Shown piece by piece: positions 15,368-29,365 of a stretch of 64,000 nucleotides of DNA; positions within the stretch are counted from its first letter, which is position 1; every line of letters starts with the position of its first letter. The stretch covers positions 72,455 to 136,454 of IMG/VR virus record IMGVR_UViG_3300035490_000050. One strand, written 5' to 3'. Both the position numbers and the translations under genes were made by a program. Source of the DNA: a virus. The notes under the pieces are model-generated. The model had not been told where the DNA came from and did not search any database. It was given only the letters and a program-made list of their open reading frames with translations.

Positions 15368-15603
15368 GCAGACATCCGTACACTTATGCAGATGATTATG
15401 TTCGTCATCTTGCGGGATATAATGAAACGGGTACAATCCTATCCAGATCAGATGCCTCTAGGATATTGGAAGGTATTGCGTTAGCGATAGGATTGGAACA
15501 TGAGCAACTCGCCACAAAGTTAAGCCTGTATTACCAAGATCACGAAGAAGAGTTCACAAACCAAGATGTAGAAGCATTTATTGCCTCTACTGGAGTACGC
15601 TAA
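15364..15603 (+). CDS. Hypothetical protein
   Basis: GTGA overlap, RBS. Confidence 0.55.
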   Translation: MSRHPYTYADDYVRHLAGYNETGTILSRSDASRILEGIALAIGLEHEQLATKLSLYYQDHEEEFTNQDVEAFIASTGVR

Positions 15604-15878
15604 TGGCAAAAACACCGAAGTATGCAGGAATCAACCCGATAGAACGTCTACACAGGGGCGAACCCTACTTTTTCATTCGCGGGCAGGACCGTTTAAGTGT
15701 AGCCGCCGTCATTGAATACAGCCATCTCTTACGCCATGAGTCGGTCAATTCATCTCTGCGTGGAGACAACGAACTGTCAGACTCTCTCGATAAACAGGCA
15801 GACGAAGTTTTATCCTATGCGCAGAAGTTCAAGGACTGGCAGCGCGAGAACCCAGACAAGGTGAAGTACCCGGATTAG
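15603..15878 (+). CDS. Conserved phage protein
   Basis: EPYFFIRGQD...KYPD motif; TAATG coupling. Confidence 0.6.
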   Translation: MAKTPKYAGINPIERLHRGEPYFFIRGQDRLSVAAVIEYSHLLRHESVNSSLRGDNELSDSLDKQADEVLSYAQKFKDWQRENPDKVKYPD

Positions 15879-16081
15879 CGAACTAGCGGATGACCGAAGC
15901 CACCACCGAAGCCACTAGCCAGCGGGACCAAAAGGTACAGAAGCCAGATGCAGAATATTACGACGATCACAACTCTGGCGATTTGTGCAAACGGGGCAGG
16001 AAGAGGAATCTGAGTGAAAATCCACCAGATCAGGCCGAAGATGATGCACATTACAAGTACCGTTATCAGCAGAGAAAGCAT
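15875..16081 (-). CDS. Small two-helix membrane protein
   Basis: Two hydrophobic helices separated by IPLPAPF; GAGG RBS. Confidence 0.65.
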   Translation of the reverse strand: MLSLLITVLVMCIIFGLIWWIFTQIPLPAPFAQIARVVIVVIFCIWLLYLLVPLASGFGGGFGHPLVR

Positions 16082-16397
16082 GAGGCACCTCAGATTCCAT
16101 TGAACGCCGATTTGATTGTGTAAGTTGAGCAAAACAGGACAGGAGAACGAAAATGGCTTACGAAGAATTTTCACATTACGCCCAAAACCGTACTAGCCTC
16201 TGGTGTCCGATCTGCGGAGCTGCGGAAGGAAAGGGATGTAACGAAGTACACGGACTGCGGTTTTCTGGCCATAATTCCTTCGCGCTAGGACAGGTAAGAC
16301 AAACTCCATCTGTACTTCACTACTACGACCCGCCAGCGTTCTTGGACGTTTACCCTGCGCGTAAGGACAAGCCAAGAATAAGTTCAGGGCTGAGGGG

Positions 16398-16718
16398 ATG
16401 GGTAAATTGACGAAAAAGAAATTCGAACACGCTCCAGAACTCAACACCGATAGTCCTGCTTACGATAAGGTTATTTGTGAGTTGGATAAGATAATATACA
16501 GTGACCCGGAAGATGTGGCACAAGAGCTAACGCTCAGAGATGCTTATATTTCGATTGAATCTCAGTTGGGAGATTTTATTACCCCGTTTGGAAAGACAAA
16601 AGAAGCGCGGCAGGAAGAAGTAAGAAAGTTGTCTGAGGTTTTGCATCTGGACCTCACTTTGGGTACGCCAATCTGGAAGATTGTTAAGGACTACGAATCT
16701 ATGATGAGGGTGAATTGA
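16398..16718 (+). CDS. Hypothetical protein
   Basis: GAGGGG RBS. Confidence 0.55.
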   Translation: MGKLTKKKFEHAPELNTDSPAYDKVICELDKIIYSDPEDVAQELTLRDAYISIESQLGDFITPFGKTKEARQEEVRKLSEVLHLDLTLGTPIWKIVKDYESMMRVN

Positions 16719-17038
16719 AGACCACGAAGACTATTGAGATCACAATTTGTGACGTGTGCGGAAACGAGAAGCGGCATCAAGACTGGCCGTGTTCTCGCTG
16801 CGGTCGGGATATATGCGATGGATGCGAAGAGCATTTTTACGTTGAGATGCGTCACACGTCAAAAGAGAGAACATACGGCTCTGGAATGCGTGGATTTCAT
16901 ACGTCTCATATCGCACTAGGAGACTCAAAGCGTGTATGCAAAGAGTGCGCTGTGGCTATCGTGGAAGGTTTGAACGCCTTGGGGCTTGTGGGAAAGCCGC
17001 AGGATGAAGTAGACAAATTTATGGCGGTTATGGATTAA
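16715..17038 (+). CDS. Zinc-finger-like hypothetical protein
   Basis: Four CxxC pairs. Confidence 0.6.
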   Translation: MKTTKTIEITICDVCGNEKRHQDWPCSRCGRDICDGCEEHFYVEMRHTSKERTYGSGMRGFHTSHIALGDSKRVCKECAVAIVEGLNALGLVGKPQDEVDKFMAVMD

Positions 17039-17080
17039 CGCTTGACATCCATTTGATTCCGTGGGAGTATTGAAACTGAC

Positions 17081-17164
17081 ATGCGATTCCTATTATCCAG
17101 TTCGCGCTATTGCCTCTCATCGTTGCTGAGAGCAGGCTCGCCATATCTGGATAAAGGGATATAA
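17081..17164 (+). CDS. Leader peptide of tRNA array 1 (MRFLLSSSRYCLSSLLRAGSPYLDKGI)
   Basis: 27 aa between TTGACA (17042) and terminator; Leu/Ser/Tyr/Cys codons match downstream tRNAs. Confidence 0.8.
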   Translation: MRFLLSSSRYCLSSLLRAGSPYLDKGI

Positions 17165-17188
17165 GATTTCAGAAATCCAGAGTTTGAC

Positions 17189-17220
17189 GAGCCGCTCAGA
17201 AATGGGCGGCTTTTGTTTTG
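17189..17220 (+). terminator. Attenuator terminator before tRNA array 1
   Basis: GAGCCGCTC-agaaat-GGGCGGCTT then T-tract; 5' arm can pair instead with 17130-17140. Confidence 0.8.
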
Positions 17221-17221
17221 T

Positions 17222-17306
17222 GCGAGATTGGCGAAATTGGGAGCCGCGTCCGATTTAAGATCGGATTCCTTTGGGAGTATGGGTTCAAGTCCCTTATCTC
17301 GCACCA
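17222..17306 (+). tRNA. tRNA-Leu(TAA)
   Basis: Cloverleaf, loop TT-TAA-GA, V-arm, CCA. Confidence 0.92.
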
Positions 17307-17307
17307 T

Positions 17308-17382
17308 GTACCGGAAGCCAATCGGTTAGGCGGCGGATTGCAGACCCGCTCTTGGCGAGTTCGATTCTCGCCCGGTACTCCA
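17308..17382 (+). tRNA. tRNA-Cys(GCA)
   Basis: Loop TT-GCA-GA, U73, CCA. Confidence 0.92.
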
Positions 17383-17393
17383 AGTTTAGTAAG

Positions 17394-17476
17394 GCCCGGA
17401 TGGTGGAATTGGCAGACACACCAGCTTGAGGGGTTGGCGCGAAAGCATACGAGTTCAAGTCTCGTTTCGGGCACCA
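17394..17476 (+). tRNA. tRNA-Leu(GAG)
   Basis: Loop TT-GAG-GG, V-arm, CCA. Confidence 0.95.
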
Positions 17477-17477
17477 T

Positions 17478-17560
17478 GGGGTTGTGGCGGAATTGGCAGA
17501 CGCACCCGGCTCAGGACCGGACGCTTTGGCATAAGAGTTCGACTCTCTTCAGCCCCACCA
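17478..17560 (+). tRNA. tRNA-Leu(CAG)
   Basis: Loop CT-CAG-GA, V-arm, CCA. Confidence 0.95.
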
Positions 17561-17567
17561 TAAGTTT

Positions 17568-17652
17568 GTCGATGTGGCGAAACTGGAAACCGCGATAGGC
17601 TCAAACCCTATTGTCTTATGACTTGCCGGTTCGATCCCGGCCATCGACACCA
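17568..17652 (+). tRNA. tRNA-Leu(CAA)
   Basis: Loop CT-CAA-AC, V-arm, CCA. Confidence 0.93.
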
Positions 17653-17660
17653 AGTTTTAC

Positions 17661-17750
17661 GGAGACGTGGCACAATGGTACTGCACAGCATTGCTAACGC
17701 TGCGATACCCCATAAAGGTATTGGGAGTTCAAGTCTCCCCGTCTCCGCCA
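17661..17750 (+). tRNA. tRNA-Ser(GCT)
   Basis: Loop TT-GCT-AA, long V-arm, GCCA. Confidence 0.93.
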
Positions 17751-17759
17751 TGTTTTAAC

Positions 17760-17850
17760 GGAAGGATGAGCGGAATTGGTATCGCACTCGCTTGGAAAGC
17801 GAGCTTACGTCGAAAGGCGTATGCAGGTTCGAGTCCTGTTCCTTCCGCCA
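17760..17850 (+). tRNA. tRNA-Ser(GGA)
   Basis: Loop TT-GGA-AA, long V-arm, GCCA. Confidence 0.95.
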
Positions 17851-17851
17851 C

Positions 17852-17941
17852 GGTAGAGTTGGGCATGGCTGGCAAGCCCACCGCTCTCGAAAAGCGACGT
17901 ACCGCAAGGTACTGGCAGATCGTTCCTGCCCTCTACCGCCA
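17852..17941 (+). tRNA. tRNA-Ser(CGA)
   Basis: Loop CT-CGA-AA, V-arm, atypical T-loop ATCGTTC, GCCA. Confidence 0.88.
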
Positions 17942-17946
17942 AGTTT

Positions 17947-18036
17947 GGATACGTTAGGCATGTGCCAAGCCTACCCCGTTTGAAGCGGGACGCTCCTGAA
18001 AGGGACTTGGGGGTTGAACTCCCTCCGTATCCGCCA
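17947..18036 (+). tRNA. tRNA-Ser(TGA)
   Basis: Loop TT-TGA-AG, V-arm, GCCA. Confidence 0.85.
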
Positions 18037-18041
18037 GTTGT

Positions 18042-18132
18042 GCGCGTGTGGCTCAGTGGCGACGGCGGCAGTCTGTAGAACTGCTACCCTTTGCGGTGAA
18101 CATCGGTGGTTCGACTCCATCCACGCGCACCA
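18042..18132 (+). tRNA. tRNA-Tyr(GTA)
   Basis: Loop CT-GTA-GA, V-arm, ACCA. Confidence 0.93.
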
Positions 18133-18134
18133 CT

Positions 18135-18287
18135 CTACTTTGCCAGCGCCCGTTTTACAGTTCTCTTTTTCTGAGAAACCTTGGTGTAGGGAGTCTGGTT
18201 GAGGGCAGGTTTCACTGTTCCTGAGACCTTGTGTTTGGTGTACGGTTTTTCTTGCAGGGCTGGCTTGACTTCGCGCTTCGTTGGCAT
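18135..18287 (-). CDS. 50-aa basic repeat peptide (VKPAL...PYTK repeats)
   Basis: GAGGTGG RBS; internal repeat; below ORF-track length cutoff. Confidence 0.55.
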   Translation of the reverse strand: MPTKREVKPALQEKPYTKHKVSGTVKPALNQTPYTKVSQKKRTVKRALAK

Positions 18288-18395
18288 TGATTCCACCTCA
18301 TAAACAGATTAGCACAATAGGAATGTGTGGTACAATTCAGGTATTCCGTCGTTCCGGCCCGACGTTAAGCAACCGGAAAATCTGAAAGGAAAACC

Positions 18396-18857
18396 ATGAG
18401 CAAGATAAAAGGTGTAGACACGTCCGTTTCATCCACCCCAAAATTCTCACAGAACAAGCCTTCAGGCGATTTCACCCACAAAGACCTCAAGCCGTGCGGA
18501 GAAGGCGGTTGTCTCCCACTAGAACAGCCTGTAGGATTCGATGAGGTTGATATTCCTGAAGTGACCTCTCCTATCCCAACCAACTTTTCTACGGTCGTCC
18601 AGATCGTCAACGGCGTAGTAACGCCAACGCTGCAAGTACTGCTCTACGATGTACTAAGCGTGATCGACGCCTCAATCCCAAACAAGGATCAGAATCGGGC
18701 GGTCAAGAAGTTGATTCACGATGGCTTTGACAAGGCGTATCTGGACATCATCCGAGAAGCCTACCCTGATTCCAACTTTGCAATTGGACCAGGACACGCC
18801 TTAACGCCTCTAGCCGACAAGAGTATGGCAATTCAGGCGGCAATCAGCAAGGTGTAA
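18396..18857 (+). CDS. Hypothetical protein
   Basis: AAGGA RBS; TG-TACAAT -10 upstream. Confidence 0.65.
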   Translation: MSKIKGVDTSVSSTPKFSQNKPSGDFTHKDLKPCGEGGCLPLEQPVGFDEVDIPEVTSPIPTNFSTVVQIVNGVVTPTLQVLLYDVLSVIDASIPNKDQNRAVKKLIHDGFDKAYLDIIREAYPDSNFAIGPGHALTPLADKSMAIQAAISKV

Positions 18858-18874
18858 AAAGCGCAGAATTATCC

Positions 18875-18903
18875 TTGACAACTCAGGAAAACGGTAGTAC
18901 CTT
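18875..18903 (+). promoter_or_regulatory. sigma70-type promoter directly before initiator-like tRNA
   Basis: TTGACA-17-TACCTT. Confidence 0.7.
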
Positions 18904-18909
18904 GGGAAA

Positions 18910-18984
18910 TGCGGGTTGGTAGCGCAGTGTCATACGTCAGGCTCATAACCTGAAAATCTGGTGCAAGTCCAGTACCCGCAACCA
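18910..18984 (+). tRNA. tRNA-Met(CAT), initiator-like
   Basis: TCAGG-CTCATAA-CCTGA arm, (T)GCGGG..CCCGCA-ACCA acceptor. Confidence 0.85.
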
Positions 18985-19192
18985 ATCTGGAGGATGTCAT
19001 GGGAAATGGCATAATTCCGCATTAGCGGCTAGAAACCGCTAATCAGTAGAGCGAGAATCCGCTGCGGGAGGTAGTATATGCAGCAGCAGAAAAGGTTGGG
19101 GGAGATGGAGAAATCCCTCCCCCAGTCTCACAAGTAAAACGAGGCGTCGACACAAACCCACGCCTATCGCCTACAAATGAAAGTGGTGTGTT

Positions 19193-19876
19193 TTGAAAAT
19201 CATCGGCGGTCATGATTATTATGATGTAGCACTGTCGATGGGCATTGATCCACGGATTGTTCTCTTGCGCGGAAAGAGTAAGAGCATACCAGTAAAGGCT
19301 GCTGGCGGGAGTTTGCTTGATCGGTACTTGGAACTCAAGCCACAGGTTACGTACAACACCTACGGCATAGGAATTGAGAATGTTGCCGTGGCATTTTGTG
19401 GGAAGGTTTATCGTGGCGCTGTAGGATTGAAGTCGCTGGAGAAGCCAGAAGGACTCTGGTCAGCAGATAAGGCAAGAGCATTCGTCGCGCAGGAAAAGAA
19501 TAGAAAGATTGACGTGGACTCACGGTGGTATGATCGCAGAAACAGGATGACCATGGAGGAATATTTCACTCCTTTTGATGCTCCTGATGCTTTGCGGAAC
19601 TACATGATCGCCAACAAGATTTCGATTCTGGTTGAAGAGCCGCCAAAGTACCGTGGCGAGGAAAGCTATTTTCAGGTCAATCCTTTCACGCTGAAGCAAC
19701 TAGGATTCGCAAAGGCTCTTGACCCATACACGGCTTTTCAGGAACTTTCGATGTGGATCGGTGGAGTTCTTGGGGGAACGAGTCCAGAGATCGTGACGAT
19801 CAAGGATGACAAGGTTTTGATTGAGAATCACGGGTTTGACAACCGATTCTCATTTCGCGGTCCTCGGATCGCATAG
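19193..19876 (+). CDS. Conserved phage hypothetical protein
   Basis: MKII...DYYD start, DPYTAFQEL, HGFD..SFR end. Confidence 0.7.
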   Translation: MKIIGGHDYYDVALSMGIDPRIVLLRGKSKSIPVKAAGGSLLDRYLELKPQVTYNTYGIGIENVAVAFCGKVYRGAVGLKSLEKPEGLWSADKARAFVAQEKNRKIDVDSRWYDRRNRMTMEEYFTPFDAPDALRNYMIANKISILVEEPPKYRGEESYFQVNPFTLKQLGFAKALDPYTAFQELSMWIGGVLGGTSPEIVTIKDDKVLIENHGFDNRFSFRGPRIA

Positions 19877-19883
19877 GATTTAC

Positions 19884-19959
19884 GCAACCGTAGCATAGCG
19901 GCTAATGTACTTGATTGTCGATCAAGGGTACGCCAGTTCGAATCTGGTCGGTTGCGCCA
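19884..19959 (+). tRNA. tRNA-Asp(GTC)
   Basis: Loop TT-GTC-GA, GCCA. Confidence 0.92.
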
Positions 19960-19974
19960 TAATCTGAGGACGCC

Positions 19975-20481
19975 ATGAGAGATCGCGCAAAGACAATAGC
20001 ATCTCTCAGACGGCTTATAGAGCGTCCTGGTACGCCGCAGGAAGGCGAAACAGCAAGACGCCTATTAGAAATGATGGGCGGGAAGGATTGGGTTCCGCGT
20101 CCTTTCGATGCAAGCATGTATCCTTGCGGAACTGAGGTTTTCTACTGCTACTGGACATACGATAACGAACATGGAGTGGTTTGCAAGCAGCCGCCAAAGA
20201 TAGAAAGAGGCCAATGGTGGATGCGAATCAAATTCGATAAGCTGAAGCAGCCGCGTTGGGTAGCAGTAACGAGCGAACTTGGATGCCATTTAGGTTTTGA
20301 GCCGTTCAAGGGAAACGACAAGGAAGTTCTCTACCATCGGGATATAGAATGGGAAGAGACGTATCGGAAGATGATTGAAGAATTCAGGGCGCTAGGAATT
20401 GACGTAAGCCGACTTGAGCACGAAGAGGTACAAGATGCACGCGATACCGGGTTGGATGTGCGGAGTGGACTTCTCCTGTGA
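19975..20481 (+). CDS. Hypothetical protein
   Basis: GAGG RBS; N-terminal RPGTPQEGETA motif. Confidence 0.65.
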   Translation: MRDRAKTIASLRRLIERPGTPQEGETARRLLEMMGGKDWVPRPFDASMYPCGTEVFYCYWTYDNEHGVVCKQPPKIERGQWWMRIKFDKLKQPRWVAVTSELGCHLGFEPFKGNDKEVLYHRDIEWEETYRKMIEEFRALGIDVSRLEHEEVQDARDTGLDVRSGLLL

Positions 20482-20729
20482 ATTAGGGGAAGCGAACGGC
20501 GGGAATACGATCTATCCGTCAGAGGAAAATCTCCGCGCCAACAGGAAATGCGTAAATTCCTCAGCGCCAGAGGATAAGATGTGCTACCCTGTTGAAGTCG
20601 TCACGATGTCGAAAGAGGACTTTCTTGAACTGGTAGAGAAGGCTGGCATTGATCCTGCGGCGATTCGGTCAAGCAATTGGGGACCAGCGGTTTGGACGAA
20701 AGAACAGGGATTGATTCAGTAGAGTTTTT

Positions 20730-20807
20730 GAGATGGCAGAGTGCGTTGGTTTGCTCCACGGCTTTTCACACCGTGCCACGCGGGTTCGATTCCCGTCCAT
20801 CTCGCCA
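20730..20807 (+). tRNA. tRNA-Glu(TTC)
   Basis: Loop TT-TTC-AC, GCCA. Confidence 0.88.
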
Positions 20808-20813
20808 AGTTTT

Positions 20814-20891
20814 GGGGTCACCGTCTAAATGGATTTGGATACCTGATTCTCACTCAGGAGATTGCGAGTTCGATCCTCGCTGACCCTACCA
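20814..20891 (+). tRNA. tRNA-Glu(CTC)
   Basis: Loop TT-CTC-AC, ACCA. Confidence 0.92.
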
Positions 20892-20969
20892 CAATTCAAG
20901 ACTCGCGACCTGATCTGAGTCAACGGGCTGGCACGGTGACCAGTGCATCAACCGAAAAGGAGAATAACG

Positions 20970-21344
20970 ATGCGTACCCGTTGCAAGTTCAGAGTCGTTG
21001 GTATTGAGAGTGTTGAACACGCGATCTTCAAGAAGGTATACAAGGCCGATGTGAGCGCCGAAGAATATGAAGCGATCACATCTCAAGAGTGGACCGAATA
21101 TCCTCCCAATCCAGACAGGCGTCTCGGTGGTGGTCCTGAGCCAAAGTTGTACAAGCAGATATTTCTAGCGAACGCTCAGAATATCCGATTGGCTGCTCAG
21201 TACGACCCTTCCATTCCCGAAGATCAGCGGTTCATGGAAGCCACACCCTCTGGGGAAATCAAGATGTATATTTCCAATCCCGCAGTGATAAACGGCTTCA
21301 AGATCGGAACGAACTACTACGTTGATCTGACGCCCTGCGATTAA
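20970..21344 (+). CDS. Conserved phage hypothetical protein
   Basis: AGGAG RBS; RCKFRV...F.EATPSGEI.M.I.NP motif. Confidence 0.7.
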   Translation: MRTRCKFRVVGIESVEHAIFKKVYKADVSAEEYEAITSQEWTEYPPNPDRRLGGGPEPKLYKQIFLANAQNIRLAAQYDPSIPEDQRFMEATPSGEIKMYISNPAVINGFKIGTNYYVDLTPCD

Positions 21345-21365
21345 CATTGTCTGCCGTACCAGCAC

Positions 21366-21405
21366 AAAAAGAGAAGCCCACCGATGTCTTGGTGGGCCTT
21401 TCTTT
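21366..21405. terminator. Bidirectional intrinsic terminator
   Basis: A-tract, GCCCACCGA/TTGGTGGGC stem, T-tract between convergent genes. Confidence 0.75.
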
Positions 21406-21432
21406 GCACTCCCCTCGTAAGGTGATACCAGT

Positions 21433-22182
21433 TTACTTCTTTGGACTTCCCATGTCAACAGGAGCCATCCGACGCGACATTCCTGCCGCTCTCATTGCCC
21501 GCACGGGAACGCTCTTGTAGAAGTCGTTCGTCGTTCGTCCAACGCTTGCGGAGAACGCCATCGTAGCGTGCGCAGTGTTGGCGTAGGCTGCTCTTACATT
21601 GCTTTGGTCGAAGACAACCGAATTGGAGAGATTGATGCCCATTGAATCTCCAGCCGTGAACGCACTGAGATCAGCGCCGAGGAAGACGAAGGTCCAGTTT
21701 CCTTCCTTCTCTTTATTCTCGATCAGTTCCTTGATCTTCGCAAGATTGAATTCTCGTGACGAATTTTCCTGCCCGTCCGTCAAGATGACGGTGAGAATCT
21801 TTGGCATCATCCCAAGTGACGGAACGCCTGCAAATGATGCTTCGACCTTGGAAACAGTGGACCCGATAGCGTCGAGAAGCGCGGTGCCGCCGCATGGAAC
21901 GTAACTCTGCTTGGTGAGTTCCGGCACCTCAGAGAGAGCGATGGATACGTGACGGTTTTCAAACCGCGTATCGAACAATGTAAGGCTGAAAGCATACGTC
22001 GATTTCTTGTCTTTTTTCAACTCACTGATATACGTGTTGAAACCGCCGATGGTGTCGTCCAAACAGGTAGCCATGGAACCGGACTTGTCGAGAACAAAGT
22101 TGATGAGAACCTTACCGTTTTTTGCGGCGGCTGGATTTGACTTCTTTGCAATCTTCTTTGGTGCGGATTTCTTTGCTGGCAT
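21433..22182 (-). CDS. VWA-domain protein
   Basis: MIDAS LDKSGSM, GGTALLDAIG, ILTDGQENSSREF. Confidence 0.9.
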   Translation of the reverse strand: MPAKKSAPKKIAKKSNPAAAKNGKVLINFVLDKSGSMATCLDDTIGGFNTYISELKKDKKSTYAFSLTLFDTRFENRHVSIALSEVPELTKQSYVPCGGTALLDAIGSTVSKVEASFAGVPSLGMMPKILTVILTDGQENSSREFNLAKIKELIENKEKEGNWTFVFLGADLSAFTAGDSMGINLSNSVVFDQSNVRAAYANTAHATMAFSASVGRTTNDFYKSVPVRAMRAAGMSRRMAPVDMGSPKK

Positions 22183-22417
22183 TCGTATTCTCCTGTGCTG
22201 CTAACGCGGTTGAAAGTGTTGATTCAGGTACGCGGTAGCACCGCTCCGCGCCAAGGAAGCTGTAGATTGCAGGTCCAGGTTCACGCCGCGAGTTGTAAAC
22301 GTCATTCAGATATTGCGGCGAGACACCCATCGTCTGCGCAAATTCCTTTTGCGTCCTCTCCCCTTGAATCTTCTGCATGATTTCCAAGAGTCCTGCGATA
22401 TTCGTCACCCTGTACAT
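22112..22417 (-). CDS. XRE-family HTH protein
   Basis: TQKEFAQTMGVSPQYLNDV..RREPG; leaderless promoter TTGCAT-17-TATTAT. Confidence 0.75.
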   Translation of the reverse strand: MYRVTNIAGLLEIMQKIQGERTQKEFAQTMGVSPQYLNDVYNSRREPGPAIYSFLGAERCYRVPESTLSTALAAQENTNASKEIRTKEDCKEVKSSRRKKR

Positions 22418-22479
22418 AAATACTATAATACGCGGATTTGTGGTATAATGCAAGTAGAAAGTTTTTGAAAAGGAGTTTC

Positions 22480-23070
22480 ATGGGAGCGAAGCGTTTACCT
22501 GCCACCGTAAAAAATCTGACGCCTATGCGTGCTGCATGGCTTGCTGCTCTGATTGATGGAGAAGGAACAATCAGTATCCACCTAACGCCTAACGGATCAA
22601 AACGTGCGTGGATCGCGGTTTACAACACAAACACCGATATTCTTGACAAATGTGCCTATGTGTGTGGCGCTGGCGTTGTTCGGAAGAAAATGCCGGGAAA
22701 GAAGAATGATGGATTCAAACGATTGCAAATGTGGGAATGGGAACTTGATAGAGCAAGAGATGCTCACCATCTTCTATGCCAACTTTATCCGTACCTGATA
22801 ATCAAGCAACACAAAGCAATAGACCTCATTGTTCATTGGAGGGACGAAAGAACCAACGATATTTCAGAAAACGACCACGACGACGTAAAGGAAATGAAGA
22901 TGGCGCAGCGTCATTTAAGCAACAGGGAATTTTCGGTCGCACTTGGTTTCGGATACGGATGCGTCAGCGGAATATATTCTCGGAATGATCCGCTTTCATC
23001 GAGAGTCAGAATCGCGTTGGATAAATACAAGACAGAAATGCCAAACAGAAAAGAATTATCTTGGCGATGA
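22480..23070 (+). CDS. LAGLIDADG endonuclease-like protein with C-terminal HTH
   Basis: AWLAALIDGEGTI, LYPYLIIK. Confidence 0.85.
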   Translation: MGAKRLPATVKNLTPMRAAWLAALIDGEGTISIHLTPNGSKRAWIAVYNTNTDILDKCAYVCGAGVVRKKMPGKKNDGFKRLQMWEWELDRARDAHHLLCQLYPYLIIKQHKAIDLIVHWRDERTNDISENDHDDVKEMKMAQRHLSNREFSVALGFGYGCVSGIYSRNDPLSSRVRIALDKYKTEMPNRKELSWR

Positions 23071-23079
23071 AAATAGTCC

Positions 23080-23108
23080 TTGACAGCGATTCCCATCTGC
23101 GCTAAGGT
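23080..23108 (+). promoter_or_regulatory. sigma70-type promoter of tRNA array 2
   Basis: TTGACA-17-TAAGGT; ATG of leader 7 nt later (leaderless). Confidence 0.8.
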
Positions 23109-23115
23109 AGAAAAC

Positions 23116-23196
23116 ATGAAGACGCGATTCCAAAACGCCAATCCAACAGCGACGGCAACGCCGCAGGGTCATGGTGCGGAATCAGGGTCTCAGTAG
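23116..23196 (+). CDS. Leader peptide of tRNA array 2 (MKTRFQNANPTATATPQGHGAESGSQ)
   Basis: Codons 3-21 all specify amino acids served by array 2 tRNAs. Confidence 0.82.
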   Translation: MKTRFQNANPTATATPQGHGAESGSQ

Positions 23197-23229
23197 GATT
23201 TTTACTCGCATAGAGCGAGTAAAACTGAA

Positions 23230-23270
23230 GAGGCCCGGTCCAAAGAAGCGGATCGGGCCTCGGTGCTTTT
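23230..23270 (+). terminator. Attenuator terminator before tRNA array 2
   Basis: 12-bp stem GAGGCCCGGTCC/GGATCGGGCCTC, offset T-tract; 5' arm can pair instead with 23178-23194. Confidence 0.7.
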
Positions 23271-23278
23271 AGGGATGT

Positions 23279-23354
23279 TCCACGGTCGTCTAACTGTGAA
23301 GACACCGAACTGTTAATTCGGGTAATGCAGGTCAGAATCCTGCCTGTGGAGCCA
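23279..23354 (+). tRNA. tRNA-Asn(GTT)
   Basis: Loop CT-GTT-AA, atypical T-loop TCAGAAT, GCCA. Confidence 0.88.
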
Positions 23355-23363
23355 GTTTGAAGT

Positions 23364-23439
23364 TGGGGAGAAGTTCAACGGGTGGAACAATCGGCTCTGA
23401 CCCGATAGGCAGAAAGTTCGAGACTTTCCTCCCCAGCCA
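23364..23439 (+). tRNA. tRNA-Gln(CTG)
   Basis: U1-A72, loop CT-CTG-AC, GCCA. Confidence 0.92.
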
Positions 23440-23446
23440 AGATCGT

Positions 23447-23520
23447 TGCCCGTTCGTTCAACGGTAGGACACCGCCCTTTGGAGGCGAGGATGGCGGTTC
23501 AAGTCCGTCACGGGTAGCCA
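23447..23520 (+). tRNA. tRNA-Gln(TTG)
   Basis: U1-A72, loop CT-TTG-GA, GCCA. Confidence 0.94.
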
Positions 23521-23527
23521 AATTAAC

Positions 23528-23601
23528 GCGGGCATAGCTCAGTGGTAGAGTGCTGGCTTGCCGAGCCGGAGACGCGGATTCAAGTTCCGCTGCCCGCTCC
23601 A
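23528..23601 (+). tRNA. tRNA-Gly(GCC)
   Basis: Loop TT-GCC-GA, TCCA. Confidence 0.95.
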
Positions 23602-23682
23602 TATTGAAAGAGGAAGACGATGAAGGTTGATTTGGACGCCAGCATGGAATCGGTATACGGAAGGCTGGCAGGAAGGTTTCAG

Positions 23683-23757
23683 GCTGCTGTGGCAGAGAGC
23701 TTATGCGCTGACCCCGTAAGTCAGAATACAAGGGTTGAAATCCCTTCGGCAGCTCCA
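23683..23757 (+). tRNA. tRNA-Thr(CGT), C33 variant
   Basis: Loop CC-CGT-AA, TCCA. Confidence 0.85.
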
Positions 23758-23782
23758 GAATGTGACGAAAGCGAGTAGGACG

Positions 23783-24328
23783 ATGAACTTACTGAAAAAA
23801 CCCGTACTTTTGCTCAACGCATCGTATGAGGCAATTCGCATAATTTCAGCAAAGAGATCGCTGACTCTCTTAACGAAAGGAAAAGTTGCGGTCGAACTTG
23901 CAACGGACAGGGAAGTTTATCCTGGCGTGTTTTTGCCTAGCGTTATCCGTCTTCTTGTCTACAAGCATGTTCCCGTCAGAATGCAGCAGATGACGCGCAA
24001 AAACCTGTACTTGAGAGACGGTTACAAATGTGGCTATTGCGGTGAGCAGTTTTCTGGAAGCGAACTGACTTTGGATCACATTATCCCAAAGGCGCAAGGT
24101 GGAAAGAACACGTATGAGAACTTGATTACCTGCTGCCGCAAGGATAACCATCGGAAAGCGGATCGGACGCCTCAACAGGCAGGAATGGTTTTGTTGAGAC
24201 GGCCTATCCCGGCAACGGTTCACACTGGTAGGCACATCATGCGTTCGCTAGGATTAGAAACGCAGGGATGGGCAAAATATCTTTGGGCTGATGCTGATGG
24301 TGAGCAGAGGTTAGTGGCAAGAGGATGA
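23783..24328 (+). CDS. HNH endonuclease (McrA-like) inside tRNA array
   Basis: VLLLNASYE, PSVIRL, RDGYKCGYCG, TLDHIIPKAQGG, NL..CC..NHRK..RTP. Confidence 0.92.
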   Translation: MNLLKKPVLLLNASYEAIRIISAKRSLTLLTKGKVAVELATDREVYPGVFLPSVIRLLVYKHVPVRMQQMTRKNLYLRDGYKCGYCGEQFSGSELTLDHIIPKAQGGKNTYENLITCCRKDNHRKADRTPQQAGMVLLRRPIPATVHTGRHIMRSLGLETQGWAKYLWADADGEQRLVARG

Positions 24329-24332
24329 GTTT

Positions 24333-24407
24333 GCACTCTAAACATTGCTGGTGATGCCTTCCCCTGTAAGGAAGTTTAACGGAGTTCGAGTCTCCGAGAG
24401 TGCTCCA
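24333..24407 (+). tRNA. tRNA-Thr(TGT), C33 variant
   Basis: Loop CC-TGT-AA, TCCA. Confidence 0.87.
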
Positions 24408-24410
24408 AGT

Positions 24411-24487
24411 GTGGCCGTAGTTCAAGAGGAAGAACACATGCCTGTGGCGCATGTATGATGGGCTTTCGAGCAGCCCCGGCCACCCCA
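24411..24487 (+). tRNA. tRNA-His(GTG)
   Basis: Loop CT-GTG-GC, C73, CCA. Confidence 0.88.
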
Positions 24488-24492
24488 TTTGT

Positions 24493-24567
24493 GGGGGTGT
24501 AGTGACAATGAGAACACGTCCCGTTTGCACCGGGAAAATCGGAGTTTGAATCTCCGCATCTCCACCA
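24493..24567 (+). tRNA. tRNA-Ala(TGC)
   Basis: G3.U70, loop TT-TGC-AC, ACCA. Confidence 0.9.
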
Positions 24568-24577
24568 CGTAGTTTTT

Positions 24578-24653
24578 GTCTACTGAGCTAGTGCGGTCAT
24601 AGCAATCGCCTGAAGAGCGATGGAATCCGGTTCGACTCCGGGAGTAGGCACCA
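24578..24653 (+). tRNA. tRNA-Phe(GAA)
   Basis: Loop CT-GAA-GA, ACCA. Confidence 0.93.
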
Positions 24654-24654
24654 T

Positions 24655-24728
24655 CAGGGAATAGTGTAGTGCTAACATCCGTGTTTTGGGCACACGTGTC
24701 CGGGGTTGGAATCCCCGTTCCCTGACCA
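24655..24728 (+). tRNA. tRNA-Pro(TGG)
   Basis: C1-G72, loop TT-TGG-GC, ACCA. Confidence 0.9.
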
Positions 24729-24733
24729 TTTTT

Positions 24734-24808
24734 CAACCCGTCGTTCAACGGAAAGGACGATGCGCTACGAACGCATAAATGGGGATTCGACTTCCTCCGG
24801 GTTGACCA
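24734..24808 (+). tRNA. tRNA-Arg(ACG)
   Basis: Loop CT-ACG-AA, ACCA. Confidence 0.92.
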
Positions 24809-24844
24809 TAGTTCGCAAGCACGAAATAAAGTTGAAAATAATGC

Positions 24845-24873
24845 TTGCAAATGTCTGGAATGTGTAGTAGGCT
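24845..24873 (+). promoter_or_regulatory. sigma70-type promoter of Y-like RNA / HNH / TROVE operon
   Basis: TTGCAA-17-TAGGCT. Confidence 0.7.
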
Positions 24874-24902
24874 TGATTTCGTTGGGTTTTGAAACACAGG
24901 TT

Positions 24903-25027
24903 TGCGTCTACTGTTGAGCGTACATGATGACTAGCTCACTCGGTAGAGCGATTCCCTTCAAAGGAATAGGTCACTGGTTCGATTCCAGTGTCATCTACTT
25001 CGGTAGATCGCTCAACGTCTTGACGCA
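24903..25027 (+). ncRNA. Y-RNA-like RNA 1: outer stem with TACT/GTCTT loop enclosing a cloverleaf (anticodon TCA) and a UUCG hairpin
   Basis: TGCGTC/GACGCA and GTTGAGCG/CGCTCAAC stems; cloverleaf 24926-24995. Confidence 0.75.
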
Positions 25028-25033
25028 GTAAAT

Positions 25034-25151
25034 TTGGGTGTAATTTTCGGCTTACATGAGCCTGTTTGGTCAGGCACTTGCCGTTGGAGCAAACTAACCC
25101 GGTTCGATTCCGGGATGTTACCCGAAAGGGTTGCCGAGAGACTTCACCCAA
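25034..25151 (+). ncRNA. Y-RNA-like RNA 2: same architecture as RNA 1
   Basis: TTGGGTG/CACCCAA, TAAT/GACTT loop, TTTCGGC/GCCGAGA, D, anticodon and T arms, GAAA hairpin. Confidence 0.72.
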
Positions 25152-25159
25152 TAAGTTGT

Positions 25160-25277
25160 GGGGGACCGCTTAGTAAACCGAGGACGACTTCTCGGAAACG
25201 AGTACGGTTCTAGGATACATGACAAGCATACAGCCGAAAGGCTGTGTATCGTGGCTAAACACCACGGTCCTCCACCA
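25160..25277 (+). ncRNA. tRNA-like RNA 3 with Ala-type acceptor (G3.U70, ACCA) and Y-like loop
   Basis: GGGGGAC/GTCCTCC-ACCA; AGGAC-GACTT-CTCG-gaaa-CGAG-TACG-GTTCT. Confidence 0.68.
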
Positions 25278-25298
25278 AAGTTTTGTAGTACAAGTTGT

Positions 25299-25419
25299 GG
25301 CGGGTTAGCAAAACGGAAAAGCTCTGCATGTCTTGACGCGCAATCGTCTATTTTGCAGGTTACATGCACATTCACTCGGAGAATGCACAATCTAGGTTCG
25401 ACTCCTAGACCCGCCACCA
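25299..25419 (+). ncRNA. tRNA-like RNA 4 with CCA end, anticodon loop replaced by Y-like loop
   Basis: GGCGGGT/ACCCGCC-ACCA, D arm, CTGCA-t-GTCTT-GACG-cgcaat-CGTC-TATT-t-TGCAG, V-arm, canonical T arm. Confidence 0.75.
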
Positions 25420-25628
25420 TAAGATTTACCGCATGGGAGTGCGGAAACGAGTTTGGCTGACACTGGTTTCGTGGATACATGTTTTTGGGGATCATATCCC
25501 CACCCCCCGCCTAAGCCCTTTGGCAACGGAGGATTTAGGCGGGGGTTCTGAGGGCCGCAAGGCTGCTTAGAAAACAATTGCCCACAACCGACTTTCAGCC
25601 ACTATTTTTGTGCCTTGGGAGAGGGAAT

Positions 25629-26189
25629 ATGGCCAGCGGTGATCGTTTCTACATGCTATCCTTGCGCCATCGCCCTGCGGTGTACGGCGATCTCGGAAAC
25701 ATCCTCAAAATCGAAGGTTTGGTGGTAGGCGGAGAAGGGGCGCATGTAATTCTTACGCTTCCCTCTTCCGATCTAAAAACTGATACCTACTGGGATGCTA
25801 ATACATTCCCAGCAATTCATCAGTTATCCCTTGAGGAGTGGACCGATTTTCTAGCGCGTACTGACGATCCAGAAATTCTAATCGGTCAAGCGAAGGCTTT
25901 CCATCGCAAATGCCGTTATGAAATTTCAGGGGCGGTACAGCAGAAGATATGGGTAGCTGATGGTCTAAAGTGCATGTACTGCGGAGTCAGGATGGGCAGG
26001 GCACAACTCACAGTGGACCATTGGGAATCGCTTGAGGCTGGTGGAAAGAACGATAGCTCAAATTTTCTCGCAGCCTGCAAGACGTGTAATAAGGCCAAAG
26101 GTTCCATGCCGCCGCGTGACTGGTGCAGCCTTCGCAAAATTGATTACGACTTCTTTGTGGAGTATCTGAGAACGAGGAAGTTGCCTTAA
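25629..26189 (+). CDS. HNH endonuclease-domain protein
   Basis: DGLKCMYCG, LTVDH, GG....NFLAACKTCNKAKG. Confidence 0.85.
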   Translation: MASGDRFYMLSLRHRPAVYGDLGNILKIEGLVVGGEGAHVILTLPSSDLKTDTYWDANTFPAIHQLSLEEWTDFLARTDDPEILIGQAKAFHRKCRYEISGAVQQKIWVADGLKCMYCGVRMGRAQLTVDHWESLEAGGKNDSSNFLAACKTCNKAKGSMPPRDWCSLRKIDYDFFVEYLRTRKLP

Positions 26190-26217
26190 CACTTTTCGCA
26201 CCGGGAGGGCGAATACT

Positions 26218-27711
26218 ATGGCAGAAACAGGGCTTACACGTCAAAGAATTTTGTCGGAATTGTCGAAGAGTCCACACGGCTCTTTGAAAGAGTATCTTCC
26301 TATCGGCAAACAGGCCGTTCAACAGGAAGGTGAATTTTATCAACACATGCTTGCCTGGGATAGGACGCATGGGCAGATTAGGGACAGCAAGGTTGCGCTT
26401 CCTGTGATCGGCTTGGCTTTTGAGAAGGATGAGGAATTACTCGACAACAGCCTTGCTCACATCGCTCTTTTGGGGCCGCGTGAACTGGCAAGAGCATATC
26501 GGTTTGGATTGGAGATTCGTCTCCCTGGCAAGATGCGTCAGTTGCGTAGGCTTGTCGAAGACTACCTACACCAAAAGGAGCAAGACAAAGGTTGGGATCA
26601 TCTGGCAATCCAGCACAGGGGTACGCTGAAGGAACTCTACTCTCTGGCGCACGCAAAGCCTGAAAAGGAGAGAACCAACGTCGTTCTCTATGGCAGGAAC
26701 TTCGACAAGACAAAGGCACCGCTGCCCAAGGGATCAGTCTTTGAGGTAGTAGCAAACCTCAAGAACATGAGTCCTACGGAGGCTGCTGGTTCGATCATGA
26801 AGTACCGGATTCCTTTCCTTATCGCCATGGGCGCGTTAGGCGCAAAGGCGAAGGAGCCGGATTTGGTACTGGCTTTGATCGGAGCCATGTCTGCAACGGA
26901 GTTGACCACGAACGTCAAGATGCTGGAGAAGTTGGGCCTGAAGACGAATCCTGCGCTGCGTGGGGCATTCGACAACGCATTGGCTAAGGCGGCTACGTCG
27001 AAGAAGAATACGCTCAAGACGACTCAGGCGGTCGAGGCCGTACAGGACGAGGGATTGAAGGAGAAGCTCCGTGGACTACAGGCAAAGCAGATAGCGGCTG
27101 CGGGTGGTCCAGACGGCGACTGGGTAATTTTAGTTGACAAATCTGGATCGATGCACCATGCAATCGAAACTGGTTGCCATGTTGCAGGGGCGCTCACACA
27201 GTTCGTCAAAGGAAAGGTTGGGTTGATTTTCTTCGATACCTCTCCTATGGCGGTGGACGTAACCGGCTTGTCGCTGGACCAAATCAAGAAGGCGACACGA
27301 CACTTCACAGCGAACGGTGGAACATCCATCGGCTGCGGTCTGAATCGGATGCTGGTAGAGAAAGTTGCTGTGGATGGAATTGTGATCGTGTCGGACGGTG
27401 GAGACAACACTGCTCCACTATTCCATGACGTATATCCGAAGTACGCGAAATTCTGCGATAAGGATGTGCCGGTGTATTTCTACCAACTTAGCGGAGAATC
27501 GGACAAGCTGACGCCGAACATGCAACGGGCAGGAATCGAGATGACAACATTCGATTTGCGCGGTTCAAAGCTGGACTACTACAGCATTCCGAACACGGTC
27601 AAGACGCTTCGCAGTAACCAGTACAGTTTGGTTGAGGAAATACTCTCGACCCCGCTTTTAACCCTCAACACCGTGCTCAAGGGAGCGCAGAAAGGACTGG
27701 TGACAGTCTAA
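26218..27711 (+). CDS. TROVE/Ro60-like protein with C-terminal VWA domain
   Basis: Helical N-terminal domain (IRDSK.ALP, LKELY..AH.KP, MSATEL..N...LEK.G), MIDAS VDKSGSM, GGTSIG, IVIVSDGGDN; adjacent Y-like RNAs. Confidence 0.78.
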   Translation: MAETGLTRQRILSELSKSPHGSLKEYLPIGKQAVQQEGEFYQHMLAWDRTHGQIRDSKVALPVIGLAFEKDEELLDNSLAHIALLGPRELARAYRFGLEIRLPGKMRQLRRLVEDYLHQKEQDKGWDHLAIQHRGTLKELYSLAHAKPEKERTNVVLYGRNFDKTKAPLPKGSVFEVVANLKNMSPTEAAGSIMKYRIPFLIAMGALGAKAKEPDLVLALIGAMSATELTTNVKMLEKLGLKTNPALRGAFDNALAKAATSKKNTLKTTQAVEAVQDEGLKEKLRGLQAKQIAAAGGPDGDWVILVDKSGSMHHAIETGCHVAGALTQFVKGKVGLIFFDTSPMAVDVTGLSLDQIKKATRHFTANGGTSIGCGLNRMLVEKVAVDGIVIVSDGGDNTAPLFHDVYPKYAKFCDKDVPVYFYQLSGESDKLTPNMQRAGIEMTTFDLRGSKLDYYSIPNTVKTLRSNQYSLVEEILSTPLLTLNTVLKGAQKGLVTV

Positions 27712-28010
27712 TGAATATCAACGCACTGAAGAACTTCAACGCCGACCGTATGGACTTGGATGACATGGTAGGCTTGCTTGCGGACTGCAAGGCACTCCGC
27801 GCTGAGTACGAGGCGCTCCAGATCGAAGAGCCTGAGTATATCGACACAACCATCAAGGCAATTCGCCGGGAGATCACATCCCGCAACGCTGACAAGATCG
27901 CGGCTCGTAAGCGTGAGCTTGCCGCACGGATCGACAGCCTCAAGACTCCTGCACAGAAGAAGGCAGAACTTGAGAAGGAGCTTGCCAAGTTGGAAGCCGT
28001 TCCTGTCTAA
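27711..28010 (+). CDS. Small coiled-coil protein coupled to TROVE gene
   Basis: TAATG overlap; charged helical sequence. Confidence 0.7.
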   Translation: MNINALKNFNADRMDLDDMVGLLADCKALRAEYEALQIEEPEYIDTTIKAIRREITSRNADKIAARKRELAARIDSLKTPAQKKAELEKELAKLEAVPV

Positions 28011-28031
28011 CCCATCAACCATTTGAGCGAA

Positions 28032-28062
28032 GGGGCACAGGATAACGTGCCCCACTTTTTTC
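28032..28062 (+). terminator. Intrinsic terminator of TROVE operon
   Basis: GGGGCAC-aggataac-GTGCCCC then T-tract. Confidence 0.8.
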
Positions 28063-28064
28063 TC

Positions 28065-28093
28065 TTGCATTCCTAATCGACCTGGGGTACAGT
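28065..28093 (+). promoter_or_regulatory. sigma70-type promoter of tRNA array 3
   Basis: TTGCAT-17-TACAGT; GTG 7 nt later. Confidence 0.78.
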
Positions 28094-28100
28094 TTCTATA

Positions 28101-28184
28101 GTGATGAAGAGGATCATTGGTATCACCTCTTTTCTGTTCGCCCACCCCCTTCGGCTCTCCCAAGTGTCCGGGGATGTAGGCTAA
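28101..28184 (+). CDS. Leader ORF A of tRNA array 3 (MMKRIIGITSFLFAHPLRLSQVSGDVG)
   Basis: Starts at predicted TSS; stop overlaps RBS of leader B. Confidence 0.6.
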   Translation: MMKRIIGITSFLFAHPLRLSQVSGDVG

Positions 28185-28191
28185 GGAAAAC

Positions 28192-28278
28192 ATGCAGACG
28201 ACCACCAGACGCGGGACCATAACCAGAATGACCAAGCGGGTCATTTGGGGAATAGTGCGCGAGGGTTGGGACGATTAA
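28192..28278 (+). CDS. Leader peptide B of tRNA array 3 (MQTTTRRGTITRMTKRVIWGIVREGWDD)
   Basis: AAGGA RBS; codons 3-23 only T,R,G,I,M,K,V,W, the amino acids of array 3. Confidence 0.8.
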   Translation: MQTTTRRGTITRMTKRVIWGIVREGWDD

Positions 28279-28302
28279 ATCTGCAAAAAGATTGAATCTA
28301 CC

Positions 28303-28328
28303 AGCCCGGTCTTAGGATCGGGCTTTTT
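28303..28328 (+). terminator. Attenuator terminator before tRNA array 3
   Basis: AGCCCGGTC-ttag-GATCGGGCT-TTTT; CCAGCCC can pair instead with GGGTTGG 28263-28269. Confidence 0.8.
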
Positions 28329-28357
28329 GATGTTTGAAAACTGAAACGAATAATCAT

Positions 28358-28432: not shown

Positions 28433-28437
28433 TTTTT

Positions 28438-28515: not shown

Positions 28516-28519
28516 AGTT

Positions 28520-28700: not shown

Positions 28701-28704
28701 TAGT

Positions 28705-29364: not shown

Positions 29365-29365
29365 T

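Follow-up and report, generated by a model that had tools for sequence, protein, structure and literature searches.

How are ten transfer RNA (tRNA) genes for Leu, Cys, Ser and Tyr switched on in a phage, and what is the role of the small open reading frame (ORF) placed directly in front of them, in which codons for these four amino acids are assembled in one run? The question is raised by a stretch of 64,000 nucleotides (nt) from the IMG/VR virus record IMGVR_UViG_3300035490_000050 (positions 72,455 to 136,454), called here the window. The window is the right-hand 64 kilobases (kb) of the 136,454-base phage record, which is complete according to CheckV. A promoter, the leader ORF and an intrinsic terminator are located ahead of the tRNA genes of block 1, all within 180 nt (window 17042–17221). 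We call this unit leader 1, or attenuator 1. According to its sequence and to a comparison of seven lineages (the window and six relatives), leader 1 is probably a ribosome-mediated (leader-peptide) transcription attenuator, which would open the tRNA operon upon slow decoding of the Leu, Ser, Tyr and Cys codons. The features of the locus are as follows.

17042–17047, plus strand: −35 box TTGACA, read from the sequence; TTGACA in six of the seven lineages and TTGTCA in one, always 17 nt before the −10 hexamer
17062–17070, plus strand: extended −10 element (TG, one base, then GAGTAT; hexamer 17065–17070), with TG at −15/−14 in 7/7 lineages
17081–17164, plus strand: leader ORF of 27 codons and TAA, encoding the peptide MRFLLSSSRYCLSSLLRAGSPYLDKGI, from the ORF list and its translation; it begins 10 nt past the −10 hexamer
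17090–17128, plus strand: regulatory run, codons 4–16; 12 of the 13 are Leu, Ser, Tyr or Cys codons, TCG occurs twice and CGC interrupts
17086–17119, plus strand: region 1, the 5′ strands of the anti-antiterminator, from minimum-energy folds and the matrix test of region 1 against region 2
17127–17160, plus strand: region 2, the alternative partner of region 1 or region 3, from folds and duplex matrices
17176–17197, plus strand: region 3, consisting of ATCCAGA (17176–17182) and CGAGCCGCTC (17188–17197), from the fold of the truncated transcript and the 130-nt folding step
17189–17220, plus strand: intrinsic terminator, a 10-pair stem (6 G–C) with a GAAA-type loop (17189–17212) followed by the U-tract TTTTGTTTTG; −17.4 kcal/mol
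17222–18132, plus strand: tRNA block 1, ten genes (four Leu, Cys, four Ser, Tyr), nine by ARAGORN defaults and the tenth by a relaxed run and a profile
17947–18036, plus strand: tRNA-Ser(tga), the tenth gene, from the relaxed ARAGORN threshold and the clade Ser-tRNA profile (E = 1.5e-9)

The codons of the leader ORF are ATG CGA TTC CTA TTA TCC AGT TCG CGC TAT TGC CTC TCA TCG TTG CTG AGA GCA GGC TCG CCA TAT CTG GAT AAA GGG ATA TAA. In the regulatory run, Leu is represented by five and Ser by four different codons, TAT and TGC are present as well, and CGC divides it into uninterrupted runs of 5 and 7 codons. The 16 codons for Leu, Ser, Tyr and Cys were grouped into 11 decoding classes, named by anticodon (taa, caa, gag, tag, cag, gga, tga, cga, gct, gta and gca). 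Codons 4–16 hit 11 of the 11 classes in 12 codons, and the sole repeat is TCG. The same count was made for 272,832 segments of 13 codons in the six frames of the whole genome. At least nine classes are reached only in six overlapping segments on the leader ORF; elsewhere the maximum is 8 of 11, reached by 21 segments. Leu, Ser, Tyr and Cys account for 19.1% of the codons in the 63 ORFs of at least 200 residues, and no uninterrupted run of at least 10 such codons is present in the whole genome. When the leader 1 peptide is fixed and the synonymous codons are redrawn according to genome usage, coverage of all 11 classes is obtained with P = 0.0036. The initial annotation of this DNA had proposed sensing at the level of isoacceptors rather than amino acids. 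As far as the sequence can tell, the codon design agrees with this proposal, and the codons, helices and terminator were all found where that annotation had placed them.

The order of the genes in block 1 is Leu(taa), Cys(gca), Leu(gag), Leu(cag), Leu(caa), Ser(gct), Ser(gga), Ser(cga), Ser(tga) and Tyr(gta). ARAGORN defaults and the Rfam tRNA model both miss the gene for tRNA-Ser(tga) at 17947–18036, as they do several Ser tRNAs of class II in the relatives L009, G003 and G004. Because ARAGORN misses some Ser tRNAs, the tRNA gene sets of the relatives are lower bounds. The CTA codon of the leader has no matching gene here: tRNA-Leu(tag) is absent across the 136-kb genome among 38 tRNA calls at the relaxed threshold. 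From this codon it had been predicted that a tRNA-Leu(TAG) gene was lost, and the homologous arrays agree, as the gene is present in all six relatives, directly ahead of Leu(caa). In the window, 7 nt separate Leu(cag) from Leu(caa).

Leader 1 is not the only unit of this kind. The tRNA blocks at 23279 and 28358 are likewise each preceded by a promoter, a small ORF and a terminator, with other sets of amino acids. Under standard wobble, the three leaders have 14/26, 19/25 and 16/27 codons readable by their own tRNA blocks, the count for block 3 including three putative Arg anticodons taken from the raw sequence. The numbers readable by the blocks that are not their own are 6, 3, 2, 2, 0 and 5; for leader 1 they are 6 and 3.

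The RNA between the start codon and the first tRNA gene can be folded in alternative ways. Region 1 provides ATTCCT and TTATCCAG (17086–17100) as the strands of its long helix, and TTGC and CTCTC (17110–17119) as the strands of a local hairpin. The strand of region 2 that faces region 1 is CTGGATAAAGGGAT (17147–17160). Helix 1:2 is formed by TTATCCAG (17093–17100) with CTGGATAA (17147–17154). Helix 2:3 has an outer part, the antiterminator strand GAGCAGGCTCG (17130–17140) with CGAGCCGCTC (17188–17197), and an inner part, TCTGGAT (17146–17152) with ATCCAGA (17176–17182). The strand CGAGCCGCTC doubles as the 5′ arm of the terminator, and the U-tract of the terminator ends 1 nt ahead of tRNA-Leu(taa) at 17222. 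The fold of 17070–17222 has an energy of −49.7 kcal/mol (z = −2.97), and 1 of 200 dinucleotide shuffles is as good. As the transcript of the window is allowed to grow, helix 1:2 is the fold at lengths of 80–120 nt; at 130 nt it gives way to the antiterminator (−37.9 kcal/mol), and at 140 nt it returns together with the terminator (−49.3 kcal/mol). In transcripts that end before the 3′ arm of the terminator, pairing of the ORF tail with the terminator 5′ arm, around a small inner hairpin, is the best fold in six of six sequences.

Relatives were collected as IMG/VR contigs reached through a vWA/Ro-like protein (window 26218–27711) and a 153-residue ORF, and were extended upstream where needed. 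Eight records have the Leu/Cys/Ser/Tyr block. The leader regions of G001 and G002 are identical, so G001 was excluded and seven distinct sequences remain. A small ORF of 18–27 codons is located just 5′ of the block in 7/7 lineages. The leader peptides are MRFLLSSSRYCLSSLLRAGSPYLDKGI in the window and MKNLCLSSLSYSSLLGVGEAVG, MNNLCSLSLSSYSLSLSAREAMG, MKLLSLLSSSLYSCSLSGMEARM, MKTVCLSSLSSYSSLLSGGGGS, MKNLSLSSYLSSCGDGCA and MKTYCLSSYCLSLLSSLSNEGAFV in the relatives, the last with a GTG start. The core of the relatives' leaders consists of 10–15 consecutive Leu, Ser, Tyr or Cys codons, and every leader has at least one Cys and at least one Tyr codon. The order of the residues is shuffled across the seven leaders, and the composition is kept. 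Class coverage is 11/11 in five leaders and 9/11 in the other two. The P values from redrawn codons are 0.0036, 0.0035, 0.0084, 0.024, 0.32, 0.069 and 0.0056; the codon usage of this genome was applied to all seven leaders, and the lineages are related by descent, so that these values are not independent.

The promoter is conserved as well. The −10 hexamers match the form nAnnnT in 7/7 lineages. The −10 box of leader 1 had been described as weak, and the hexamer GAGTAT indeed matches the consensus at 3/6 positions; this is offset by the conserved TG of the extended −10. The start codon is located 6–10 nt past the −10 hexamer in every lineage, and no Shine–Dalgarno motif is found between the hexamer and the start codon in any of the seven. 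The short distance from the −10 hexamer to the start codon and the missing Shine–Dalgarno motif suggest that the leader 1 message, with transcription starting where we predict, is probably leaderless or nearly so. Terminators of 8–15 pairs with a U-rich tail are located at the equivalent place in 7/7 lineages. The parts of the leader, their conservation and the codon design are established at the level of sequence and comparison.

As the MAFFT alignment of the 3′ halves was poor, duplex matrices computed per sequence were used instead. In the matrix of ORF tails against terminator 5′ arms, the seven own combinations total −110.5 kcal/mol; across 1,854 derangements the average is −90.6 and the best total −105.2 kcal/mol. 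In the matrix of region 1 against region 2, the own combinations total −183.3 kcal/mol, compared with an average of −149.8 and a best total of −177.8 kcal/mol across the 1,854 derangements. Judged by these matrices, helices 1:2 and 2:3 co-evolve. Co-evolving strands explain how the order of the codons drifts while the base pairing stays. RNAalifold on the rough alignment gives the terminator hairpin only, with 11 pairs, 2 of which have compensatory changes, and a covariation term of +0.85. The spacing is also kept: the stop codon and the terminator arm are 24–34 nt apart in 7/7 lineages. In 6/7 lineages the 5′ strand of the antiterminator ends 0–6 nt ahead of the stop codon, where a ribosome in the act of termination would cover it. 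The ORF of the window is longer; here the outer antiterminator strand ends 21 nt ahead of the stop codon, and the inner strand TCTGGAT is nearer to it. The initial annotation had described an attenuator with 1:2, 2:3 and 3:4 pairings. This description holds: the growing transcript passes through three mutually exclusive states, the arrangement is found in 7/7 lineages, and the own strands pair better than in all derangements.

Several searches for a wider set of relatives gave little. The upstream 107-residue ORF was tried as another route; it led to seven loci with matches of 24 residues only, none of them with tRNAs, and was dropped. A search for relatives with the 227-residue ORF found nothing. 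In a DNA search of cultured phages, matches were confined to tRNA-Leu genes (7 records), and tblastn with the vWA/Ro-like protein brought up two records at 32% and 25% identity, neither of them a close cultured relative. In the unrelated cultured phage DSS3_MAL1, which has seven tRNA blocks, no matched ORF is located upstream of a block (best matched fraction 0.33). Thus the design is not universal among phage tRNA arrays.

The mechanism that we propose for leader 1 is as follows. Transcription would begin at ATG 17081 or a few bases before it, and the ribosome would load at the 5′ end. When the 12 Leu, Ser, Tyr and Cys codons are read fast, the ribosome would reach the ORF tail and mask region 2; behind the ribosome, or without a ribosome, region 1 would pair with region 2. 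With region 2 masked or held by region 1, the hairpin 17189–17212 would be formed, and the polymerase would halt 1 nt before tRNA-Leu(taa). When the ribosome is slow on an early or middle regulatory codon, region 1 would be occupied and region 2 would be free; the 2:3 pairing would then be formed, no terminator would appear, and the polymerase would continue into the tRNA genes of block 1. The leader has roughly one codon for each decoding class, so that it would act as an OR gate on the supply of each tRNA species, and the newly made tRNAs would close a negative feedback loop. In transcripts coming from upstream genes, the ATG would be internal without a ribosome-binding site; this would lead to the 1:2 fold and termination, and the unit would also insulate the operon. 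Four points of this mechanism are inferred: that the leader ORF is translated, where transcription starts, that stalling is the signal and that read-through is regulated.

The initial annotation had suggested folding constrained by ribosome footprints as a check of this switch. In our calculation, 31 nt around each A-site codon were held unpaired at equilibrium. In the window, the probability of the terminator falls from 0.98 to 0.55–0.67 with the footprint at codons 5–7, to 0.21–0.36 at codons 8–10 and to 0.59–0.79 at codons 11–13, and it is 0.98–0.99 with the footprint from codon 14 to the stop codon. In the relative L009, it falls to 0.00–0.11 with the A site on codons 5–12. The check thus came out in part: the terminator probability is clearly lowered in 2/7 sequences, and little change is seen in the other five. 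In this equilibrium model, the switch is backed in only two sequences, the window and L009. If a footprint flips the fold at equilibrium in only 2/7, the switch would have to be kinetic, as it is in classical attenuators, and decided before the 3′ arm is made.

Sequencing runs provide one further observation. At least part of the window is contained in 20 of the 24 listed runs. Most of these are metagenomes from peat and soil and two are RNA libraries, whose shares are small; run shares under 0.2 were not taken as evidence of habitat. Four runs were examined, all of them as contigs, from which RNA ends and levels are not readable and in which parts not covered by RNA are uninformative. One contig of 212 nt, from an RNA library, belongs to a variant phage, with 9 letter differences and 6 gaps. 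It extends from 17092 through the terminator to 17240 and then into a diverged tRNA. Neither the regulatory run nor the outer antiterminator strand is altered: all the differences are located at or past 17145, and a 4-nt insertion at the stop codon keeps the stop. This contig would fit a read-through transcript that begins close to the ATG, which is a weak hint.

Several results weigh against the attenuator. The RNA-library contig may equally be carried-over DNA. A sigma-70 scan makes no call for the leader 1 promoter. Terminator hits between 14000 and 32000 number 21, no more than in shuffles (18.4). In the cut transcripts, the antiterminator is already the best fold without a ribosome (the arm is paired with P = 0.66–0.82), and the untranslated state is therefore not clearly 'off'. 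The gain in energy from upstream pairing of the terminator arm is matched by 32–167 of 200 shuffles. The direct duplex is equalled by 4, 137, 69, 52, 49 and 8 of 500 shuffles in the six sequences; it is clear only in two of them, the window (4/500) and G004 (8/500), and the others are at 49–137. Under footprints, the five sequences that shift little have minimum terminator probabilities of 0.82, 0.95, 0.60, 0.56 and 0.99 (at least 0.82 in L013, G003 and L028, at least 0.60 in G002 and at least 0.56 in G004). In the window itself, a stall on the last three regulatory codons (14–16) would cover region 2, with a predicted terminator probability of 0.98. One codon per class should give a low sensitivity in comparison with the tandem codons of classical leaders. 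Finally, the codon classes do not follow the isoacceptor gene content of the relatives. Of 77 class-by-lineage cells, 55 have both codon and gene, 18 have the codon without a detected gene, 4 have the gene without the codon and none has neither. As no lineage lacks both, the test of co-variation between codon and gene is uninformative.

Other explanations were considered against these data. A classical amino-acid sensor would be a real attenuator which reports the charging of Leu, Ser, Tyr and Cys tRNAs, and so amino-acid starvation, rather than how abundant or intact single tRNA species are, the synonymous spread having no sensing role. The architecture is the one known from leaders of amino-acid operons, stalling cannot distinguish an uncharged tRNA from a missing one, and the failure of codon classes to co-vary with the relatives' isoacceptor genes is in its favour. 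We nevertheless consider it unlikely. The regulated genes are tRNAs, which bring no relief of amino-acid starvation, and the near-repeat-free coverage of 11 classes is improbable under free synonymous choice (P = 0.0036 to 0.024 in 5/7 leaders) and is kept despite the shuffled order. Moreover, classical leaders repeat one amino acid, whereas Cys and Tyr occur here once each, like their genes.

Two explanations without attenuation are less probable still. The hairpin may be an ordinary terminator or insulator which ends transcription from upstream (genes 16398–17038) next to an unrelated micro-ORF, the tRNAs being transcribed by leaky read-through. No terminator is present between the end of the upstream ORF (17038) and the leader, and the absence of an overall enrichment of terminator-like hits, like the two energy measures that are no better than shuffles, fits a hairpin of this plain kind. 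This explanation is very improbable in our judgement, as a conserved promoter stands between the upstream gene and the hairpin in 7/7 lineages, the composition of the ORF is extreme genome-wide and fits the tRNAs that follow, both helices (1:2 and 2:3) have co-evolved with the ORF, and a like layout is found at two other tRNA blocks with other amino-acid sets. The ORF may instead encode a functional small peptide, a Leu/Ser-rich microprotein such as a membrane peptide, with a codon match that is incidental or aids expression. The intact ORF in 7/7 lineages and its hydrophobic core would agree with such a peptide. The residue order, however, is not kept and the composition alone is (MRFLLSSSRYCLSSLL, MKNLCLSSLSYSSLL, MNNLCSLSLSSYSLSLS and others), the tails differ and yet each complements its own terminator arm, and selection is visible on synonymous codons; this peptide is the least credible of the explanations considered. 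The attenuator remains our preferred reading, and the comparative and statistical evidence for it is strong on design and conservation and incomplete on dynamics.

Some observations concern the leader and its block in the relatives. The 8-mer GCGATTCC is common to leaders 1 and 2 at their 5′ ends (window 17083–17090 and 23124–23131). In leader 1 it gives CGA and TTC, which are codons of the tRNAs of block 2 (Arg-acg and Phe-gaa), and Lys, Asn or Thr codons occupy its position in the six relatives. The sharing may reflect recombination between leaders 1 and 2. In two relatives the Leu/Cys/Ser/Tyr block is split by insertions of about 0.6–0.8 kb (L025 1916–2680, in record G002, and L028 811–1383). 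The split point is between Leu(cag) or Cys and Leu(tag), and the tRNAs beyond the insertion have no matched leader of their own in either locus. In L026 (record G004), the block and its leader are located more than 40 kb from the vWA/Ro-like gene, and in the window this distance is about 9 kb, which shows that the array has been rearranged.

ARAGORN reports 31 tRNA genes on the plus strand from 17222 to 29525. A TTGACA promoter-like site is located directly before tRNA-Met(cat) at 18910–18984 (stretch 18876–18984), a tRNA called by relaxed ARAGORN alone, and neither a small ORF nor a terminator is present between this site and the tRNA. Thus, not all tRNAs of this array are behind an attenuator. 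At 20814–20888 of the window, Rfam detects a tRNA (46.6 bits) which is not in the ARAGORN list; by eye its anticodon loop reads CTC (Glu), like the Glu(ctc) genes of the relatives. Anticodons matching each of the three stop codons occur among the tRNAs of the clade: tca in the window (24925–24998) and in L013, cta in L011 and L018, and tta in L013. In the relatives they are positioned at 2861 and 14039 (L011), 3824 and 15002 (L018), and 13452 and 8411 (L013). They may act as suppressors, or they may indicate that stop codons are recoded. Two HNH endonuclease genes are located within the array, at 23735–24328 and 25578–26189. One further gene is located about 1 kb past the tRNA array.

30531–31499, minus strand: RNA ligase gene, Pfam PF09414 (E = 6.2e-22), with the OB-fold domain PF21189

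The attenuator could be part of a larger design. The leader would then be a 'codon test strip' on a leaderless 5′ end, detecting when any one of the host's tRNA species for Leu, Ser, Tyr or Cys is lost, for instance to cleavage by an anticodon nuclease of the host or to host shut-off. The phage would transcribe a replacement set and shut the operon after decoding recovers, and together with attenuators 2 and 3 the unit would form a three-channel closed-loop tRNA homeostat. In this test-strip reading, the RNA ligase gene near the array points to a module for sensing damage and for resupply, and the orphan CTA codon, with no phage tRNA-Leu(TAG), would report on the host's own tRNA. We put the test strip forward tentatively, as a possibility to which we give somewhat less than an even chance.

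Leader 1 can be compared with known systems. The thr leader (Thr, Ile) and the ilvGMEDA and ilvBN leaders (Leu, Val, Ile) are multivalent leader-peptide attenuators of enterobacteria. Leader 1 shares with them a short promoter-proximal ORF naming several amino acids, the overlapping pairings 1:2, 2:3 and 3:4, and a terminator before the genes. In these leaders the position of the ribosome selects the helix, as it would in leader 1. Unlike them, leader 1 is phage-borne and targets tRNAs rather than biosynthetic enzymes. It has about one codon per class (11 in 12 codons) instead of tandem repeats for one or two amino acids, ORFs of its type begin 6–10 nt past the −10 hexamer with no Shine–Dalgarno motif, and it has no sequence or Rfam relationship to them. 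The trp, his, leu and phe leaders, which are Rfam families, sense one amino acid through 2–7 adjacent cognate codons. The logic of ribosome stalling and the competition between terminator and antiterminator would be common to these leaders and leader 1. T-box riboswitches use a specifier codon and the T-box sequence to bind uncharged tRNA directly, need no translation, and control synthetase and amino-acid genes. Leader 1 resembles them as a proposed case of transcription attenuation that reports on tRNA species by a choice between terminator and antiterminator, and differs in having an ORF, no T-box match and tRNA genes as its target. At the Rfam gathering score, tRNA models are the only hits in 16900–30000, with no leader family and no T-box; at E values up to 0.1, no Rfam leader family or T-box was found in L001 (window 15540–18725) and five related loci.

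The nearest published case found is the trn operon of Anabaena sp. PCC 7120, a horizontally spread accessory tRNA array which is silent until translation is impaired and is controlled at the promoter by repeats and the repressor TrcR (PMC8421152). The likeness is an accessory tRNA array induced under translational stress, and the differences are that it is a cellular plasmid array rather than a phage array and is controlled at the promoter level. In a term search, 'attenuat' and 'leader peptide' occur 0 times in PMC8421152 and PMC10272220. No account of attenuation of tRNA genes was found in a full-text literature search, subscription journals being largely outside its reach. The novelty would be that leader-peptide attenuation, a textbook mechanism known for amino-acid and related operons, is applied to a tRNA operon with codons chosen per isoacceptor.

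Among the attenuators of this phage, attenuator 1 contributes the cleanest evidence at the codon level (11 classes in 12 codons) and the prediction of a lost tRNA-Leu(TAG) gene that was borne out. If the proposed mechanism is true, the leader would provide a compact natural sensor, with several inputs, of how fast chosen codons are decoded, and would be useful for reporting the state of the tRNA pool. The reasons for near-complete tRNA sets in large phages, and the response to defences that target tRNA, would become testable with an element of 180 nt. Phage tRNA arrays would then be driven by demand, not simply constitutive helpers of codon usage, with a sensor that reads the very quantity which the operon supplies.

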